NCBI RefSeq assembly: GCF_000092465.1
Contig: NC_014205.1
Coordinates: 510,001-542,000, forward strand
Length of the DNA: 32,000 nucleotides
Direction of reading: 5' to 3'
DNA from: Staphylothermus hellenicus DSM 12710
GTDB lineage: Archaea > Thermoproteota > Thermoprotei_A > Sulfolobales > Desulfurococcaceae
The first letter of the stretch is position 1; each line of letters begins with the position of its first letter. The translations under genes were made by a program, and so were the position numbers. Below, piece by piece: positions 1,195-22,898 of this stretch. The notes under the pieces are model-generated. The model was not told the origin of the DNA. It worked only from the letters and a program-made list of their open reading frames with translations, and ran no database searches.

Positions 1195-2754
1195 ATGAGC
1201 CGAGGTAATAATGGTAAATATTATCTACCGAGTAGACAGTACAGAATCGTCGAGGTTCTTTTGAATACTGGGCCGCTCAGTGTTGAAGAACTAGCTAGGG
1301 CTTTGAATGAGAAGCCCGAGAATATAATGAGGGATCTAGCTGAGCTTGAAGCTAAAGGATTGCTCAGAGTAATTCGTAGAATTAAACAAGTACCAGTAAT
1401 TACTGGTGAGGGCCGCGAAGTTCTGATTAAGAGGACGCCGGAGGAGAGAGTTTTTAGGGTAATGTATAGATGTGCTGGTAAGAGTGTCGGGGATTTCCTA
1501 GAATGCGTTGGCAGTGAAGCAGGTATTGATAAGCAAAAGGCTCGAATAGGTTTTCAGTATCTGGTAAGGAATAAATGTTTAAGTGTTATGAATGGAATCG
1601 TTGTTGTCGATGATGAATATGATTGTCATAGAGCTATAGAGGATGCTTCAATTATAAGATCTGCTCTTGAAAAAATAATGCGTGGTGAAACCATAGGGAA
1701 AGACATTGTTAATGTTCTAAAACGTAGACGGATGGTAAGAATCGAGAAAAAGACAATAATAATCGTTGAACCCAGCAAGGTTCTCGAGAAACTATTTAGA
1801 GAAGGATTAATAGCGAGAAGGGAATTATTAACCGTAGTTACCCCTAAGCCGAGGAGTGAATTAGAAAAATATATTATCAAAGAATTCGACTTAACAATTC
1901 CGCCTCCCAAACCAGTTGGTGGAAGACTAAATGCTTATATCGAGTTCCTCGATCTGGTCCGCGACATATTGGTTTCTATGGGTTTTGAAGAAGTTAAAGG
2001 CCCACATGTTGAATTAGAGTTTTGGAATTTTGATGCATTGTTTCAAGCACAGGATCATCCTGCTAGAGAAATACATGATACTTTCTTCTTAAAAACAGAT
2101 TTCAAAGGCAAAGTACCGGAAGAGCTTCTCAGTAGAGCTGGAAAAATACATGAAATAGGCTGGGGGTATAAGTGGGACCCCATTAGATCTCTTAGACCCA
2201 TTCTCCGCAGCCAAACTACAGCTGTATCTGTTAGAGCAATCTATGAGAGGGGGGAGGGGGAATATAGGGTTTTCAGTCTAGACAGAGTATTTAGGCCTGA
2301 AACACTTGATGCTAAACATGCTATGGAGTTCTACCAACTAGATGGTATCATAGTCGGTAAAAATGTTACGTTTAAACATTTACTAGCATTTTTCAAAGAA
2401 TTCGCTGCAGCTCTAGGGATTAGGGAAGTATGGTTTAAACCTGGATACTTCCCATTCACAGAACCAAGCGTTGAAGGCTTTATTAAGCATCCCAGTCTTG
2501 GATGGATCGAGGTGTTTCCAGGCGGGGTGTTTAGGCCTGAAGTAATGGAGATCCTGGGAGCGCCTGGTGTTAGAGCTATTGCTTGGGGAATAGGTATTGA
2601 TCGACTAGCTATGGCCGTGCTCGGACTAGACGATATCAGGGATCTATTCAGTAAAGACCTTGATTTCCTCCAGAAACTCCCAACACCTATACTGCCATAC
2701 TTCATATCAAAGACTCAGGCTTCAGATGTTAGAGTTGTAAGTGCTCCGAAATAG
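1195..2754 (+). CDS. pheS: Phenylalanyl-tRNA synthetase alpha subunit (archaeal type with N-terminal winged-helix extension)
   Basis: Class II aaRS motifs are present: motif 2 RVFRPETLDAKHAMEFYQLDGIIVG and motif 3 GIGIDRLAMAVLG. A GGAGGGG Shine-Dalgarno-like sequence lies ~10 nt upstream of the ATG. Confidence 0.93.
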   Translation: MSRGNNGKYYLPSRQYRIVEVLLNTGPLSVEELARALNEKPENIMRDLAELEAKGLLRVIRRIKQVPVITGEGREVLIKRTPEERVFRVMYRCAGKSVGDFLECVGSEAGIDKQKARIGFQYLVRNKCLSVMNGIVVVDDEYDCHRAIEDASIIRSALEKIMRGETIGKDIVNVLKRRRMVRIEKKTIIIVEPSKVLEKLFREGLIARRELLTVVTPKPRSELEKYIIKEFDLTIPPPKPVGGRLNAYIEFLDLVRDILVSMGFEEVKGPHVELEFWNFDALFQAQDHPAREIHDTFFLKTDFKGKVPEELLSRAGKIHEIGWGYKWDPIRSLRPILRSQTTAVSVRAIYERGEGEYRVFSLDRVFRPETLDAKHAMEFYQLDGIIVGKNVTFKHLLAFFKEFAAALGIREVWFKPGYFPFTEPSVEGFIKHPSLGWIEVFPGGVFRPEVMEILGAPGVRAIAWGIGIDRLAMAVLGLDDIRDLFSKDLDFLQKLPTPILPYFISKTQASDVRVVSAPK

Positions 2755-2785
2755 TTTAGGATAAGGGGTTTGGGGAAGGAATGCT

Positions 2786-3445
2786 TTGCCATTAATATAC
2801 GTGCTTGATACAAGTGCTGTAACTGATCCCAGGCTTAGAGAGGTTTTTGGAGTTAAAACTTTAGATGGTGTTGTCAGAGAATATGCCCGCCTACTTATAA
2901 GGTCCCATATAGTCTTAGGCGCTGAATTCTATACAACACCTAGTACAGCATTAGAGCTGAGAAGCTTCCTTGAAAGAAACAATGTTAGTAGAGAAGCAAT
3001 TGATATGTTAATGGGAGCCATAACTATTAGATCACCCGACCTATACACTACTCGAATACCAGCAATAATTATGAGTGACTGGATACATGACATGTTAATC
3101 AGGATAACAAAGGGGTTAAGAGTGGCTGAAAATAGTGTACGTAGAGCGGCTCGAAAAGGATATGATTATGGGATAGCAAAGAATAAGAAAGGATTGGAGG
3201 AGAGCGTTGCACAATCAATACATGAGCTTAGAGAAAAGTATCGAGAAGCTACTCGTAAAGGTGTTATTGATACGAGAGTTGATTTCGACCTTGTAGTATT
3301 AGCTCATGAAATAAACGGGGAACTAGTAACTAATGATACTGGGATAATGAAGCTATGCATGCAAATCGGTGTAAAATATATTGAGCCCCCTAGATTTATC
3401 AATAAATTATTCCTATTATTACGGGAGAGAACAGGCAGGGTTTAG
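2786..3445 (+). CDS. HARP-type RNA-free RNase P candidate (UPF0278, PIN-like metallonuclease)
   Basis: 219 aa with a TTG start. The N-terminal IYVLDTSAV is a PIN acidic motif. Other matches: EFYTTPS, IRSP, RITKGLRVAE, LREKYREATRKGVIDTRVDFDLVVLAHEINGELVTNDTGI and IGVKYIEPP. These line up with my memory of Aquifex Aq_880 and archaeal UPF0278 proteins. No HMM search was possible. Confidence 0.75.
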   Translation: MPLIYVLDTSAVTDPRLREVFGVKTLDGVVREYARLLIRSHIVLGAEFYTTPSTALELRSFLERNNVSREAIDMLMGAITIRSPDLYTTRIPAIIMSDWIHDMLIRITKGLRVAENSVRRAARKGYDYGIAKNKKGLEESVAQSIHELREKYREATRKGVIDTRVDFDLVVLAHEINGELVTNDTGIMKLCMQIGVKYIEPPRFINKLFLLLRERTGRV

Positions 3446-3447
3446 GG

Positions 3448-4695
3448 TTGGAAACAGTTCTTCCCCCTAACCAATTAGAGTTTTTCTTGAAGAGACTTTT
3501 GAACTATATATTAAAAGCACATGTAAGCTATGATAAAGCCTTTAGGACAATTATTCACAAATATAGTTTTCCTAGATGGGCTCTACGCATATTTTACAAG
3601 GTAGGATACTATACTGTAACCTATTATTATTCTCTGAGATGGTTATCTGCAAAGAACGGTTACGGAACAAAGCCTGCTGGAATAATAAATTATTTCTCTA
3701 GAATAGGCTTCAGTATTAGAAGGGCGAGATCCCTTATAAGAGACGAAGTTAAACAATTATCTAGAACTAAAAGAATAAGTCTCCTGCATAGTTATCCAGA
3801 ATTCCTCGTGAAAGACTTATTAAATCATATGAGCGAGAAAGAACTGGATAAAATGCTTAAAAAACTTAATGTAAGGAAGAGATGGCTTAGAATAAATACT
3901 TTAAAAACAAGTTATGAATCAGCTTATAAATGCCTAGAAGAAACCGGTATTATTTATCAGAGGAAAAATTTCCCAGACTACATGGTTTATGTAGAGCATC
4001 CAAAATGGGATCCGATAGGTCATAATAAATGTGTGAAAAATGGATATGTTGTTCCACAGGATTTAGCAAGTGCATATGTTGTAGAAGCATTAGAACTAGA
4101 TCGGGATAAGTATTTCTTAGATGCCTGTAGTGCTCCTGGGCTAAAATATAGTTTAGCATTTATGCTTACAGATAATAAACTATATGGTTTCGCTATTGAT
4201 CTAAGCTCCAAGAGAATGAGAACCGGACAAATACTTCTTAAAAGACTTGGCGTTGATTCTTCCCGAACAATATTGATCAATGCAGATTCTGGAAACATTA
4301 AGTTGAGTAGGGTTTTTGATTATGCTTTAGTGGATGCTCCATGTAGTGGATTAGGCTCTGTTTATTCTGACCCGGCTGTTAAATTAAATACGAATAGAAG
4401 ATCCAAGCTGGAACAATACCATAAAAAACAATATAGGATTCTCAAGAATATTCTAAGATATGCTAGGAGAGTAGTATATGCTACATGCAGTATTCACCCA
4501 TTAGAGGGAGAAGAAGTTATTGAGAGAATAGTTAATGAAGGATTAGCTGAAACCAATAAAATAAATTTACCTGGTTTATCAACAGCTTATAAGGGCTTTA
4601 ATATCAGTAACAGCACCTATAGAGTATTACCGCATACAATGAATAGTCAAGGATTCTATATAGCAGTACTGGAAAGCAAGGTGGCTGGTAAATGA
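3448..4695 (+). CDS. RsmB/NOP2/Sun-family RNA (cytosine-C5)-methyltransferase
   Basis: SAM-binding motif DACSAPGLK, catalytic motif IV DAPCSGLG and motif VI ATCSIHPLEGEEV. The TTG start lies 2 nt after the upstream stop. Confidence 0.85.
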   Translation: METVLPPNQLEFFLKRLLNYILKAHVSYDKAFRTIIHKYSFPRWALRIFYKVGYYTVTYYYSLRWLSAKNGYGTKPAGIINYFSRIGFSIRRARSLIRDEVKQLSRTKRISLLHSYPEFLVKDLLNHMSEKELDKMLKKLNVRKRWLRINTLKTSYESAYKCLEETGIIYQRKNFPDYMVYVEHPKWDPIGHNKCVKNGYVVPQDLASAYVVEALELDRDKYFLDACSAPGLKYSLAFMLTDNKLYGFAIDLSSKRMRTGQILLKRLGVDSSRTILINADSGNIKLSRVFDYALVDAPCSGLGSVYSDPAVKLNTNRRSKLEQYHKKQYRILKNILRYARRVVYATCSIHPLEGEEVIERIVNEGLAETNKINLPGLSTAYKGFNISNSTYRVLPHTMNSQGFYIAVLESKVAGK

Positions 4696-5675
4696 AGCTA
4701 AAAACAGTTTATGGTCCTCATCCTAGTAGATGTTTCGATTGGAGCCTCGGAGTAGATGTATTACTTCCTCCCAAAAGATGCCCATACAACTGCGTCTATT
4801 GTCCATTAGGGAGAACATCTATTAAAACCATGAAGCCGGCAATGCTCATAGATCCGGGGACTGTTAAGAAAGAACTCGAGGAATTCATACAAGTTAATGG
4901 ATGCATATTCAGCAACATATTAGTATGGGGACACGGTGATCCACTGCTCAACTATCATACACCACTAATAGTTAGAACAATAAGAGAAACCATTAATCAA
5001 TATGGTTGTAGATCAAGTATTAGAATTAGAACAACAGGGTTCGCTTTAGGAGAGAAATGGGCTTTACCGCTACTCGACATTGTAGACGAGATAATTATTC
5101 CCTTTGATGCTGCAGGGGAAACTAGACAAGTAATAAATGATCCTATGGATAATGCAAAGATAAGCTTATTAATAGAGACATTGAGAAACATACCTAAAAC
5201 ATATAGGAGAAAAATAGCCTTTGAAACTAATCTTTTAAAGATAGATGGAATAAAAAACTCTGATCTCCCAATACTAGATGAGCTAACAAGCTATATTAGT
5301 TCAACGGGTATAATGAAGATTTATTTGAAAACAGTAAATAGGCCTTCATGGAAACAAATGATTAAACCTGTTAAAGGAAGATTATTTACAAGGGTCAAGG
5401 ACTACCTGGTGGATAAAGGATACACAGTTAAGGAATGCACGCGTGAAAAACACAGCACAATAATTATATCCTCCGATCTAGAGGAAGCTTTAATTAATCA
5501 TCTCCTGAGGAAACCTCTCAGCACAGACGAGATCAGAACAATATATGGTAATAGAGGAATAGTACTTGCTGAAAAAATGGTGCTGGAAAACCTTATAGAT
5601 AAGATCCCTTGGGGGCAGAAACTATTTTTTAAGGTGAAACAAACAATTGATCTTTATAAATGGATTAGGAGATGA
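4692..5675 (+). CDS. Radical SAM domain protein (function unknown, possibly RNA modification given the operon context)
   Basis: CxxxCxxC cluster motif CPYNCVYCPLG near the N-terminus. Its ATG overlaps the upstream stop (ATGA), which implies translational coupling. Confidence 0.75.
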   Translation: MKLKTVYGPHPSRCFDWSLGVDVLLPPKRCPYNCVYCPLGRTSIKTMKPAMLIDPGTVKKELEEFIQVNGCIFSNILVWGHGDPLLNYHTPLIVRTIRETINQYGCRSSIRIRTTGFALGEKWALPLLDIVDEIIIPFDAAGETRQVINDPMDNAKISLLIETLRNIPKTYRRKIAFETNLLKIDGIKNSDLPILDELTSYISSTGIMKIYLKTVNRPSWKQMIKPVKGRLFTRVKDYLVDKGYTVKECTREKHSTIIISSDLEEALINHLLRKPLSTDEIRTIYGNRGIVLAEKMVLENLIDKIPWGQKLFFKVKQTIDLYKWIRR

Positions 5676-5681
5676 TGTTTT

Positions 5682-5807
5682 ATGGAGGAAAGCATTGAAT
5701 CTAAGATAAGGGAATTAGAGAATAGAATAAATATTCTTGAGCAAAGAATTGATAGAATAGAGAAGATCATTGATGAGATCTATGTTTTGCTTCGCGCGCA
5801 TCTATAG
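5682..5807 (+). CDS. Possible 41-aa coiled-coil micro-protein
   Basis: ATG..TAG ORF found by hand: MEESIESKIRELENRINILEQRIDRIEKIIDEIYVLLRAHL. It shows heptad-like I/L spacing and starts 7 nt after the radical SAM stop. It is too short for the ORF track and there is no homology evidence. Confidence 0.3.
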   Translation: MEESIESKIRELENRINILEQRIDRIEKIIDEIYVLLRAHL

Positions 5808-5876
5808 AATGTTTCTTTTTATCAAGATAAATAGCTAGTGTTTCCGTGAATAGTGCTGCTAAAGCAAAGTAGAAAC

Positions 5877-7850
5877 TTAATATGAGTGCTTCATTAATTG
5901 GATCCAGCTCTGACCCCTCCTTACAACATAGGTTATCCCGCCGCGTAGAGTAATAATAACCTCGTCAGGGATCATGCTATGGACTTCTATTTCGTTCCAA
6001 CCAGCTTTTAGATCATGCATAATAGTATATTCTGTCTCTCTCGATCTAAGCGTTATCCTTACTGCTTCAATGCTGAAAGGCGACCAAATATATGCTACTC
6101 CGCCAGATACTCTTAGATGAAATGGTGGTATGTCGTATTCAATTTTTATTTTTGTCTTAAATTCTTCGAATATTCTATTCCTCCTGTTCCACCCAACTAT
6201 TTTTAGATCAGCATTGTGGATGCCCATCTTCGCCCATACTATATAGAGTGGAATCATTGTTTCGCCTCTTCTAACATTTCTTATAATATTAGTTGTTCCA
6301 AACAATGAGTTATCCTTGGTTGTTAGAACCATGTATAGTTCATCAATTGGTATAATTGAATTTATAGTTATAGGTATGAATGGTCCTAGTTGGCTGGGTA
6401 TGACTGTTGATTGTATACTTAGTTTCTTAAATGCGCTTTTCAGTTCTTGCACCTTTATACTTATATCATCTACTACGGGAAGGAAACCAGGTATTGAGAT
6501 CTCTATGGTGGCTTTGTACTCGCCGGGTTTACTGCCTCGATCAGCTACTATGATCTTGTTTTCACGAGTAGTTATTAATAGTTGGCGGGAACCCCTTCTT
6601 AATACTCTTATATTAGGAACTATTTCCCCTACAGGAATTTCAACTAGACTGTTAACCGGTAACTCGATTTCTTTTAGTTTAAAACTAATCGTTTCTCCTA
6701 GGCTCATATATATGATCTTTGGTATATCCCCTGGGGACCTATATCCTACTAGAACCTCGTCTCCCTGTATACTTATACCTCTAATGCTTCCCGTTATTGA
6801 GTATTTTCCGATATAATCGAACTTTTTACCTTTTCTAGCATATAGATACAAAATACCATTAGAGCCGATTAGTAAGTATTTTCTTGATAGATTTGCAGTG
6901 CTGGTATTTGATGGTGCTTCTAGAGAAGATATTTCATCGCCGGTTAATGGATCGATTAAGTAAATGTTTCTATTGTCATGGACAAGTATTTCTTCTAAAC
7001 CAGTGTTTATATAGGGTGTATAAATGGTCCCATTAAAGCCTCTGCGCCAGAGAGCTGTCTTATTCTTTAGATCAACTGCTAATAGTTCAGAGGTATTATT
7101 CAACACTATTAATCCACGGCTATGATCGTAGTATGCTATTGTATTGGGTATGAGGAATTGTTTAGGAATAAGTGTTTTTGGAATTGAGTATTTCTTTACT
7201 GAGCGATCCCATAAATGGAAGAATATATTTGTTTTCTTACTTGTTGTCTCAATATAGGAAAACCATAATCCATTCCATCCTCCTAGTAGGAGTTTTTCGT
7301 GTTCTTTAACAGTATATTTTTCTTCATCTTTACTATATACTATGACGTCTTTACACTTAGTACCGGGTGGGCCGGTGGTATGTGCTAAAGCAATTATTCT
7401 ATCTCCAACAACGCCTACATCAACATGTATGATAGTACATGTTTTTTTCGAGAAAAACCCGGTTTTAATATTGGATAATTGATAAACAGTTCTTCTACCA
7501 TCAAGAACTATAAATGAATGGGTTCCGTCCGCTAATTGAACAGCTAATCCATGATATTGACCATTATATACGACATTATATAGTGAACCATATATGGGAC
7601 ACATACTTCTATCGTTAAAAAATAAATGATCAACTCCTGACACGTTTTTTACATATGTTCTATAAAGCCTGCCGGCACTAACATATACGAAACTTTTACT
7701 ATACGCTAAGCCGGGATAGGGGCTATGTTCTCCTTTTTTATATATATAAATACTTCTCGGCTTAGCGGGATCGAGTTCTTCACCGATCACCGCATCCTCG
7801 ATAATCATAGGCATCATATATATTTTTTCTTTTACCATTAAACACACCAT
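5877..7850 (-). CDS. Large hypothetical protein, beta-rich (beta-propeller-like N-terminal two thirds, Ig-like C-terminus?)
   Basis: 657-aa uninterrupted ORF. Repeated strand-turn patterns (e.g. ALWRRGFNGTIYTPYI..ILVHDNRNIYLIDPLTGDEI) resemble PQQ/WD-like blades. No signal peptide, no TM segment and no catalytic motif that I recognise. Several Met codons near the start leave the exact start uncertain. Confidence 0.6.
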   Translation of the reverse strand: MVCLMVKEKIYMMPMIIEDAVIGEELDPAKPRSIYIYKKGEHSPYPGLAYSKSFVYVSAGRLYRTYVKNVSGVDHLFFNDRSMCPIYGSLYNVVYNGQYHGLAVQLADGTHSFIVLDGRRTVYQLSNIKTGFFSKKTCTIIHVDVGVVGDRIIALAHTTGPPGTKCKDVIVYSKDEEKYTVKEHEKLLLGGWNGLWFSYIETTSKKTNIFFHLWDRSVKKYSIPKTLIPKQFLIPNTIAYYDHSRGLIVLNNTSELLAVDLKNKTALWRRGFNGTIYTPYINTGLEEILVHDNRNIYLIDPLTGDEISSLEAPSNTSTANLSRKYLLIGSNGILYLYARKGKKFDYIGKYSITGSIRGISIQGDEVLVGYRSPGDIPKIIYMSLGETISFKLKEIELPVNSLVEIPVGEIVPNIRVLRRGSRQLLITTRENKIIVADRGSKPGEYKATIEISIPGFLPVVDDISIKVQELKSAFKKLSIQSTVIPSQLGPFIPITINSIIPIDELYMVLTTKDNSLFGTTNIIRNVRRGETMIPLYIVWAKMGIHNADLKIVGWNRRNRIFEEFKTKIKIEYDIPPFHLRVSGGVAYIWSPFSIEAVRITLRSRETEYTIMHDLKAGWNEIEVHSMIPDEVIITLRGGITYVVRRGQSWIQLMKHSY

Positions 7851-7952
7851 ATATTAATTATGAGGCATACATGATAGTATAGTATTTGTCTTCAAATATG
7901 TATTTTTAACTATGTCATTTATAATAAAATATCTTTGAGGAGGGAACAATAA

Positions 7953-9089
7953 ATGCCTATACGGCATGCCTGGTCAAGAGCTTTACCTAGTAATTGTAGC
8001 TTAGATGCTGTCAGATTTAGAGAAGAATATATAGAGTTAAGATTGTATTGCGCTGATTCTATGACGCTATATACTGTTAACTTCATCAGCGGCAAAGTAG
8101 ATATTAGAAGAATAGGCGAGCCAGAGCTTCGAGGCGCTGTTGAGAGGAAAAGAGAATTCAGAATACTTACTTGCTATAAGGGATATGGTAATAGGGCTTG
8201 GAGCAAGATCTATAGGGGACTAAATACTAAAATGATTTGTAGAAAAGATGTGTGCGTTGTCGCTAATTTGAAGCCTAATTATGCATTAGATATTAGCGCT
8301 GTTACCAGTAATGGTGATGTATTAGAGTCAGTTACTGTTGGTGGTGTATATCATTTTGAGGTTGCGGGTTCTGATAACCTGATTGTTGTTACTACACGTG
8401 GAATTAGGGCTGATTCAACTACTACGATGTTGATCGATGGATCCACTGGATCAGTAATTGATCATGTAACAGGATTCGGTGGATCAGCTGTATCTAGTTT
8501 AGACTATGTATTTGTTTATGGCGAACATGAAGGTAAAATAATTACTCATGGATATAATAATGAAGGAGAAGAAATAATTCCTGGAGGAGAAGAGGGTTTA
8601 CCTATTCTACCACCATTCAATCCTATACCTCATAGAGTTCCTGGTTCAGAGATTTTTGAGGTTAAAAAAGTTGTTTTGATGGAGAAAAACTTTTTGAAAC
8701 TATATAATCCCGAAGATTATGTCATAGAATATACTCTGCTAAAACCCCCATTTACACGTGGAGTATTCAATATTAATATACATAATTATAGCGCGACAGT
8801 TCTTGCTCAGATTATGGGTTGGCCGTTCATTATAAACTATGATTTTAAAGGCAGGGTTATTTGGAGTAGTCATATTATTAGAGATACTATATATGGTATA
8901 GTTACGGGGAATATAGTTGCTCTATATGTTGATAATGGTAAAATACGTGAGACAAAACTATATAGTGTTAAAGACAACACTCTCGTTCTTGAAGAGTCTT
9001 TCGGCCCCAATGCATTACCATTACTTGTTAGAAGAAGCAATATATTATTAACTGATGGTAGAGTTGTTGCTTCCTATATGATGGAGTGA
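7953..9089 (+). CDS. Hypothetical protein, beta-rich, no recognisable motif
   Basis: 378-aa ORF with a GAGGAGGG Shine-Dalgarno-like sequence 8-15 nt upstream. It is divergent from 5877-7850 across a 102-nt AT-rich spacer. Confidence 0.6.
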   Translation: MPIRHAWSRALPSNCSLDAVRFREEYIELRLYCADSMTLYTVNFISGKVDIRRIGEPELRGAVERKREFRILTCYKGYGNRAWSKIYRGLNTKMICRKDVCVVANLKPNYALDISAVTSNGDVLESVTVGGVYHFEVAGSDNLIVVTTRGIRADSTTTMLIDGSTGSVIDHVTGFGGSAVSSLDYVFVYGEHEGKIITHGYNNEGEEIIPGGEEGLPILPPFNPIPHRVPGSEIFEVKKVVLMEKNFLKLYNPEDYVIEYTLLKPPFTRGVFNINIHNYSATVLAQIMGWPFIINYDFKGRVIWSSHIIRDTIYGIVTGNIVALYVDNGKIRETKLYSVKDNTLVLEESFGPNALPLLVRRSNILLTDGRVVASYMME

Positions 9090-22568: not shown

Positions 22569-22898
22569 TTGTATGTTTCTACTTCGTGGAAATATTCTTA
22601 TATATGTTTATCTAATATTGTATTTGATGATGAGATATAATCCCACAATCTATATGGTGTAAAACTAGCACCGAATGAGTGCTTGGCTGGGAACGCCCTC
22701 ATGATGAGGGAAGTTATTTGTTCCCTAGAAAGTCCCTTAATGAAGTTAGGTAACAACATAAAAAGAATTGAAAGATAACTGGAAATACAATATAAAATTG
22801 ACTGAGAGTAAAGTGAAATTAATGCATGGAGCTATAATAGGCGACCCGATAATTATAGTTGCTTAGATACTAGAAGTAGTGAGAGAGAAAAGTAGAAT

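Follow-up and report, generated by a model that had tools for sequence, protein, structure and literature searches.

Layout of the cluster and identity of its HARP gene

The stretch analysed here (the window) covers 32,000 nt of the Staphylothermus hellenicus DSM 12710 genome (NC_014205.1, positions 510,001 to 542,000), and our subject is a gene in it for HARP, a family of small protein-only nucleases of the RNase P type. This gene is the second of four that follow one another closely on the plus strand (1195-5675). The first is pheS (1195-2754), encoding the alpha subunit of phenylalanyl-tRNA synthetase (PheRS) in its archaeal form with an N-terminal winged helix-turn-helix (NF003210, 540 bits; PF01409, 259 bits). 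A plus-strand spacer of 31 nt with G-rich, Shine-Dalgarno (SD)-like motifs (2755-2785) leads to the HARP gene (2786-3445), whose 219-aa product is a PIN_5 protein matching PF08745, NF003345 and TIGR03875. After a 2-nt gap comes the gene for a 415-aa RNA 5-methylcytosine (m5C) methyltransferase of the NSUN/RsmB family, which begins with TTG (3448-4695; PF01189, 108 bits), and its end overlaps by 4 nt (ATGA) with the gene for a 327-aa radical SAM enzyme with a C-terminal winged-helix-like domain (4692-5675; PF04055, 40 bits). Directly 3' of the latter lies an open reading frame (ORF) for a 41-aa coiled-coil peptide (5682-5807, plus strand), recognised by its conservation in tblastn searches. An earlier, sequence-only reading of this DNA had described the four co-directional genes, with gaps of 31 and 2 nt at the first two junctions and a 4-nt overlap at the third, and these agree exactly with the ORF list. 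As set out below, HARP probably entered this cluster as a single insert, and its partner is likely to be an RNA ligase encoded elsewhere in the genome.

A TATA-like element (TTTATTTA/TTTATGTA, 1136-1147) lies 50-60 nt upstream of pheS, whose ATG is preceded by GGAGG at 8-15 nt, and a run of five T's follows the 41-aa ORF at 5816-5820. No TATA-like box with at most one mismatch was found at the three junctions by a simple scan for TATA boxes and T-runs, which is indicative only. SD-like GGTG/GGAG motifs occur at the junctions, in S. hellenicus or in its relatives; the pheS-HARP spacer of the relatives is 9-25 nt long and has GGTGAT, AGGTG or GGAG right before the start codon. Translational coupling is in keeping with a gap of 2 nt and with the ATGA overlap. 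Judged from the sequence, pheS, harp, the NSUN-type m5C methyltransferase gene and the radical SAM gene, possibly with the 41-aa ORF, are probably co-transcribed and translationally coupled, and the operon-like packing proposed in the sequence-only reading is borne out by the short junctions and the SD-like motifs.

Profile searches matched the product of 2786-3445 to HARP models over its full length: it scored 225.6 bits against PF08745 (cut-off 27; E 5e-67; profile positions 2-200 of 205), 378 bits against NF003345 (cut-off 260; residues 1-218 of 219) and 241 bits against TIGR03875, the "RNA ligase partner protein" (cut-off 95). HARPs of known structure in the PDB (7f3e and 8kd9 from Aquifex, 7e8k/7e8j, 8ssf and 7og5) matched its sequence with E values from 4e-26 to 3e-20. 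Four aspartates are essential in the HARP Aq880, D7, D138, D142 and D160 (PMC8405995), and D8, D162, D166 and D184 of the S. hellenicus protein align to them; all four are invariant in alignments of 11 and of 18 Desulfurococcales HARPs. Seven conserved basic residues of Aq880 (R94, R96, K99, R102, R125, R129 and R133) have been proposed to contact the tRNA elbow; six of them are kept, as R106, K109, R112, R149, R153 and R157, and L104 stands in the place of R94. The peptide strings from which the sequence-only reading had named the gene are present, and its assignment stands, with scores above the cut-offs and the acidic residues of the PIN domain retained: the 219-aa gene is, on these sequence criteria, a bona fide member of the HARP family.

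HARP is present in a single copy in the genome. Its ratio of non-synonymous to synonymous substitution rates (dN/dS) against the sister species is 0.039 (0.034 for pheS), and since this equals the constraint on pheS, the gene must be under strong purifying selection. The genome, a single contig of 1,580,347 bp, also encodes an archaeal RNase P RNA (RF00373, 162 bits; gathering score 84) and the proteins Pop5, Rpp30, Rpp29 and Rpp21. HARP thus coexists with a complete ribonucleoprotein (RNP) enzyme, in agreement with the earlier remark that archaea with HARP usually keep it. To our knowledge, RNP RNase P is also present in all described HARP-encoding archaea. Neither the identity of HARP nor this coexistence is new for the S. 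hellenicus genome: the HARP is already catalogued in a 2025 survey (PMC12153264), where Table S1 lists "Staphylothermus hellenicus P8 DSM 12710" as HARP-positive, with ligase "YES" and co-localised "No".

Gene order and ancestry across the Desulfurococcaceae

We compared the locus with 40 relatives, then with 150 genomes of the class, plus 44 GenBank loci; "the family" refers here to the Desulfurococcaceae in the GTDB sense. About 19 family genomes have pheS, the m5C methyltransferase gene and the radical SAM gene adjacent in this order without HARP, the pheS-methyltransferase junction being 13-40 nt. With HARP in second place, the order of S. hellenicus recurs in the genomes of seven relatives and in 11 GenBank loci from metagenome-assembled genomes. 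Taken together, more than 30 genomes keep the order pheS > (HARP) > m5C methyltransferase > radical SAM, and none of the junctions exceeds 40 nt. In two further genomes (G004 and G010) HARP, the methyltransferase and the radical SAM gene follow a divergently oriented ligase gene. HARP is adjacent to the methyltransferase-radical SAM pair in 10 of the 11 HARP-bearing family genomes, with gaps of 2 to ~25 nt, and the adjacency spans about eight genera. In four genomes of one genus (g14; loci L127, L131, L132 and L136) the radical SAM gene comes straight after pheS, and the methyltransferase was not found there with the query used; since this genus keeps the two genes together, no link in the family's cluster is more persistent than that between pheS and the radical SAM gene.

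In other families of the order HARP adjoins an Rnl3 ligase gene or stands alone, and no NSUN-type gene was found near it in ~40 loci, for which the flanks covered were mostly up to 5 kb per side and in some cases ~1.5 kb or a short contig. The pattern-based scan of HARP contexts reached almost only Desulfurococcales and so speaks for that order, not for Euryarchaeota.

In a tree of the methyltransferase and radical SAM proteins, all 11 HARP carriers fall in one clade of 13 (SH-aLRT support 100), which includes two HARP-less members. With the closest homologs of other families as outgroup, the methyltransferase tree shows the HARP clade (support 99) as nested, the HARP-less lineages branching earlier. 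Because the rooted trees put all carriers in one nested clade, HARP is best explained as a single later insert. The family HARPs are themselves monophyletic (support 99), and their branching is congruent with the tree of the host genes.

The Rnl3 ligase and the other genes of the neighbourhood

HARP and the Rnl3 ligase (TIGR01209) share one distribution: 18 of the 41 genomes have both, and the other 23 have neither (23/23). S. hellenicus has its own Rnl3 gene at genome position 976368-977453 (TIGR01209, 345.6 bits; PF09414 and PF18330), ~460 kb from HARP and therefore far outside the 5-kb range of co-localisation. As HARP co-occurs with the ligase while the methyltransferase and radical SAM genes persist without HARP, HARP seems tied to the ligase and not to its neighbours. 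A side observation concerns G010, where the ligase next to an intact HARP is a pseudogene consisting of fragments with TAG stops (L060, 2200-3056); this is the only non-intact HARP-ligase pair among the 18 genomes, and the genome is 70% complete.

The methyltransferase of the cluster is of the RsmB/NOL1/NOP2/Sun type and carries the catalytic-cysteine motifs DAPCSG and TCS. Its match to the RsmF/B ferredoxin-like domain is weak (26.2 bits, cut-off 27), and it remains below every NCBIfam equivalog cut-off of the RsmB, Trm4 and NSUN6 types; the best score was 173 bits against PRK14902 (RsmB; cut-off 319), and the tRNA C49 methyltransferase model gave 64 bits (cut-off 550). Its nearest relatives in the PDB are NOP2/NSUN1, MJ0026 and the fmu protein of PH. 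The genome encodes five NSUN-family paralogs, of which the one in the cluster is the most divergent. Another lies in the run of co-directional genes that begins with the ligase (genome 976368-980900; L071, 4321-8875), which reads ligase > 217-aa orphan > DUF72 > NSUN-family methyltransferase (RsmF_N type) > UPF0113/PUA. HARP and its unlinked ligase are thus each found near an m5C methyltransferase paralog.

The radical SAM protein matched only PF04055 and has its CX3CX2C motif as CPYNCVYC at residues 30-37; C14 and C249 are invariant among the orthologs aligned. Its AlphaFold2 model has a pLDDT of 90. A Foldseek search with this model returned generic radical SAM cores alone (PFL-AE, NifB, TYW1, viperin and RlmN) at TM scores of ~0.5, a sequence search of the PDB gave no match, and no NCBIfam model reached its cut-off. 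In the ESM Atlas the protein falls among unnamed clusters of radical SAM proteins with a winged helix-turn-helix, and profile searches lead to a broad unnamed family. Full-length orthologs are nearly confined to the Desulfurococcaceae (27 of 28 genomes). Homologs carry the JGI label "wyosine synthetase". We rejected an identification as Taw1/TYW1, as the Wyosine_form domain (PF08608) is lacking and the genuine Taw1 is encoded elsewhere, with its PF08608 match at genome position 585110, 72 kb away; the JGI label is a COG-level over-annotation. In G006 a 738-aa open frame suggested that methyltransferase and radical SAM protein are fused; this too was rejected, since a TGA separates two ORFs. 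The 41-aa ORF is found in the same position and on the same strand in at least nine relatives by tblastn, with or without HARP. It matches no Pfam family, and its C-terminus is conserved (IDEIYVLLRAHL). It may have its own leaderless promoter, as TTTATAAA at 5653 lies ~26 nt before its ATG.

The gene for the PheRS beta subunit, pheT (10341-12017, minus strand; PF17759, PF03484 and PF03483), lies 7.6 kb past the end of pheS, on the other strand and several kb off as the sequence-only reading had it. Its corollary, that pheS travels with tRNA-processing genes rather than with its partner, is weak: pheT is convergent immediately 3' of the radical SAM gene in several relatives (genus g11 and G006), so pheS may be regarded as still in its partner's neighbourhood, and in the window only three genes besides the 41-aa ORF lie between the radical SAM gene and pheT. 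A divergent orphan pair (5877-9089; 657 aa on the minus strand and 378 aa on the plus strand) without any Pfam or NCBIfam match and a Na+/H+ antiporter gene occupy this interval, and the pair is kept beside the cluster in many relatives.

No tRNA gene (e.g. for tRNA-Phe) was found in the window, and at the gathering threshold Rfam gave one CRISPR repeat and nothing else. This match (CRISPR-DR27, 38 bits; 22750-22774, minus strand) lies between pgk and a dihydroorotate-dehydrogenase-like gene. Finally, a GC-rich hairpin is predicted on the minus strand at 986-1080, between a glpA-like gene and pheS (-52 kcal/mol; z -5.2 against shuffled sequences); it is followed by ACA and a run of seven T's and has no Rfam match at the gathering threshold.

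Interpretation and comparison with known systems

We consider it likely that HARP was inserted once into an older cluster, that its partner is Rnl3 and that it has an accessory role in RNA processing. In such a history, the backbone of pheS, m5C methyltransferase and radical SAM genes would be ancestral and older than HARP. A single insertion in the ancestor of one sub-clade would then have placed HARP exactly at the pheS-methyltransferase junction, and HARP would have been inherited vertically under strong purifying selection from there on, with one or two losses. The protein is predicted to be a functional, small PIN-domain endonuclease of the protein-only RNase P type that forms homo-oligomers (in HARPs, from tetramer to dodecamer), and in this hyperthermophilic crenarchaeon the RNA-based RNase P would still carry out the bulk of tRNA 5' maturation. 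HARP would borrow a housekeeping operon's promoter and would not itself be the core of an operon for tRNA-Phe or for tRNA modification. Its evolutionary partner would be the Rnl3 (Pab1020-type) ligase, the two being gained and lost together even when 460 kb apart, which makes accessory RNA 5'-end processing linked to RNA ligation or circularisation the most likely role. The substrate of HARP and its link to the activity of the ligase are what we infer here.

The sequence-only reading had placed HARP in a dedicated tRNA maturation operon. Put at its strongest, this means that HARP, the NSUN-type methyltransferase and the radical SAM enzyme would be a functional unit of RNA maturation and modification, for which the link with pheS could point to tRNA-Phe. 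The two genes do stand right behind HARP in 10 of 11 family carriers and in two upstream arrangements, a gap of 2 nt and the ATGA overlap are consistent with translational coupling, and partnerships of the eukaryotic nuclease PRORP with methyltransferases are documented (PMC10941002). Most of the family, however, has the backbone but not HARP (the methyltransferase-radical SAM pair in ~19 such genomes), HARP having come in as a derived single insert; HARP loci of the other families searched showed no NSUN neighbour in the flanks covered; and the presence of HARP follows the unlinked ligase (18/18 present, 23/23 absent) and not the genes of the cluster. The JGI label of wyosine synthetase and the position of the radical SAM gene next to pheS even without the methyltransferase would speak for such a unit, but there is no Wyosine_form domain, Taw1 lies 72 kb away and the G006 "fusion" is two ORFs. 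We therefore regard the dedicated operon as not upheld and a functional unit as unlikely. A narrower version, in which HARP was recruited, in this Desulfurococcaceae sub-clade, as a partner of the NSUN-type methyltransferase and the winged-helix radical SAM enzyme for a specific RNA (such as tRNA-Phe or the precursor of a small RNA) whose ends are sealed by Rnl3, seems to us more doubtful still. If true, prokaryotes would have arrived by convergence at an equivalent of the mitochondrial and plant assemblies of protein-only RNase P with RNA methyltransferases.

That the genes are adjacent through genome compaction alone, each with its own promoter and with no functional or regulatory link, might be suggested by a dense genome of 1.58 Mb and by the fact that crenarchaeal promoters can sit in upstream coding sequence, where TATA-like octamers are seen at 4655 and 5653. 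A gene order shared by more than 30 genomes in which no junction exceeds 40 nt, together with the start/stop overlap and SD-like motifs as found at internal operon genes, makes this very unlikely. HARP might also be a VapC-like PIN toxin, or a selfish or defence element that ended up in a housekeeping operon, given that its structure puts PIN_5 with the VapC-type PIN domains, that HARP-ligase pairs have been suggested to be toxin-antitoxin systems (PMC12153264) and that HARP is scattered among the relatives (18 of 41). We give this hardly any credence: no antitoxin-sized partner is adjacent, inheritance has been vertical at a fixed site over many genera, the dN/dS of 0.039 equals that of pheS, the tRNA-elbow basic residues are conserved, and the Thermococcus kodakarensis ligase knockout, insofar as PMC12153264 cites it, had no growth defect.

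Several points count against single-insert, ligase-partnered HARP as we have drawn it. The adjacency of HARP to the methyltransferase and radical SAM genes survived a swap of what lies upstream (pheS or ligase), which may reflect selection to express HARP together with the methyltransferase and agrees with the functional-unit reading. Co-transcription of the cluster is what we infer from the sequence; weak TATA-like boxes lie within coding sequence at 4655 and 5653, and TTTAGGATAA, ~26 nt upstream of the HARP start, could be a weak internal promoter. In the protein, E141 of Aq880 is replaced by valine and R94 by leucine; the E141 position is variable across Desulfurococcales HARPs. Moreover, several recombinant bacterial HARPs were inactive on pre-tRNA, and some HARPs that do oligomerise lack activity (PMC12153264), so that RNase P activity of the S. 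hellenicus protein is not guaranteed. Finally, the sequences of other families on which the methyltransferase tree is rooted could be paralogs, and the direction of change, gain rather than loss, is for that reason likely but not proven.

The new content of this analysis is a modest comparative-genomic refinement, consisting of the single insertion, the perfect co-occurrence of HARP and ligase in the order, and the pheS-linked methyltransferase/radical SAM module. The locus adds facts on, and no answer to, the role of HARP in archaea that keep RNA-based RNase P. A natural way to look for the substrates of HARP is to compare close relatives with and without the insert, and the pheS-linked pair of radical SAM enzyme and methyltransferase is an unstudied, lineage-specific candidate RNA-modification module.

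Among HARP-encoding archaea, S. hellenicus is typical in keeping RNP RNase P beside HARP. Its protein resembles the Aq880-type HARPs (PF08745; TIGR03875; PDB 7f3e, 8kd9, 7e8k, 7og5 and 8ssf) in the full-length profile match and the four essential aspartates, as well as in the Thr-Ser of the DTS motif and a protruding helical hairpin with six of the seven basic residues. It differs from Aq880 in having ~14 extra residues at the tip of this hairpin and in belonging to the Thermoproteota sub-family NF003345, and its RNase P activity is a prediction. The radical SAM enzyme is like Taw1/TYW1 in having a core of similar size (Foldseek TM 0.50 with PH TYW1, 2yx0) and in adjoining pheS, but it has neither the Wyosine_form domain nor the auxiliary cluster motif of the Taw1 type, and ends instead in the winged-helix-like domain.

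Human mitochondrial RNase P (PRORP with TRMT10C/SDR5C1) and Arabidopsis PRORP2 with TRM1A/B combine protein-only RNase P with tRNA methyltransferases (PMC10941002). The likeness at our locus is that a gene for a nuclease of the protein-only RNase P type adjoins, and is probably co-expressed with, one for an RNA methyltransferase. The families are unrelated, the nuclease being PIN_5 rather than NYN and the methyltransferase an NSUN-type m5C enzyme rather than TRM10 or TRM1; a physical interaction between the two would be conjectural here, and the methyltransferase occurs without HARP in most relatives. Closest is the HARP-Rnl3 partnership (Seshadri & Gopalan, mBio 2025, PMC12153264). S. hellenicus has both genes, and in the Desulfurococcales they co-occur perfectly; that they are gained and lost together also where they are unlinked, within a single order, strengthens the published partnership hypothesis. 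Unlike the co-localised pairs, the S. hellenicus HARP is apart from its ligase and has a fixed slot in the pheS/m5C-methyltransferase/radical SAM cluster, a context of which the main text of that survey makes no mention.

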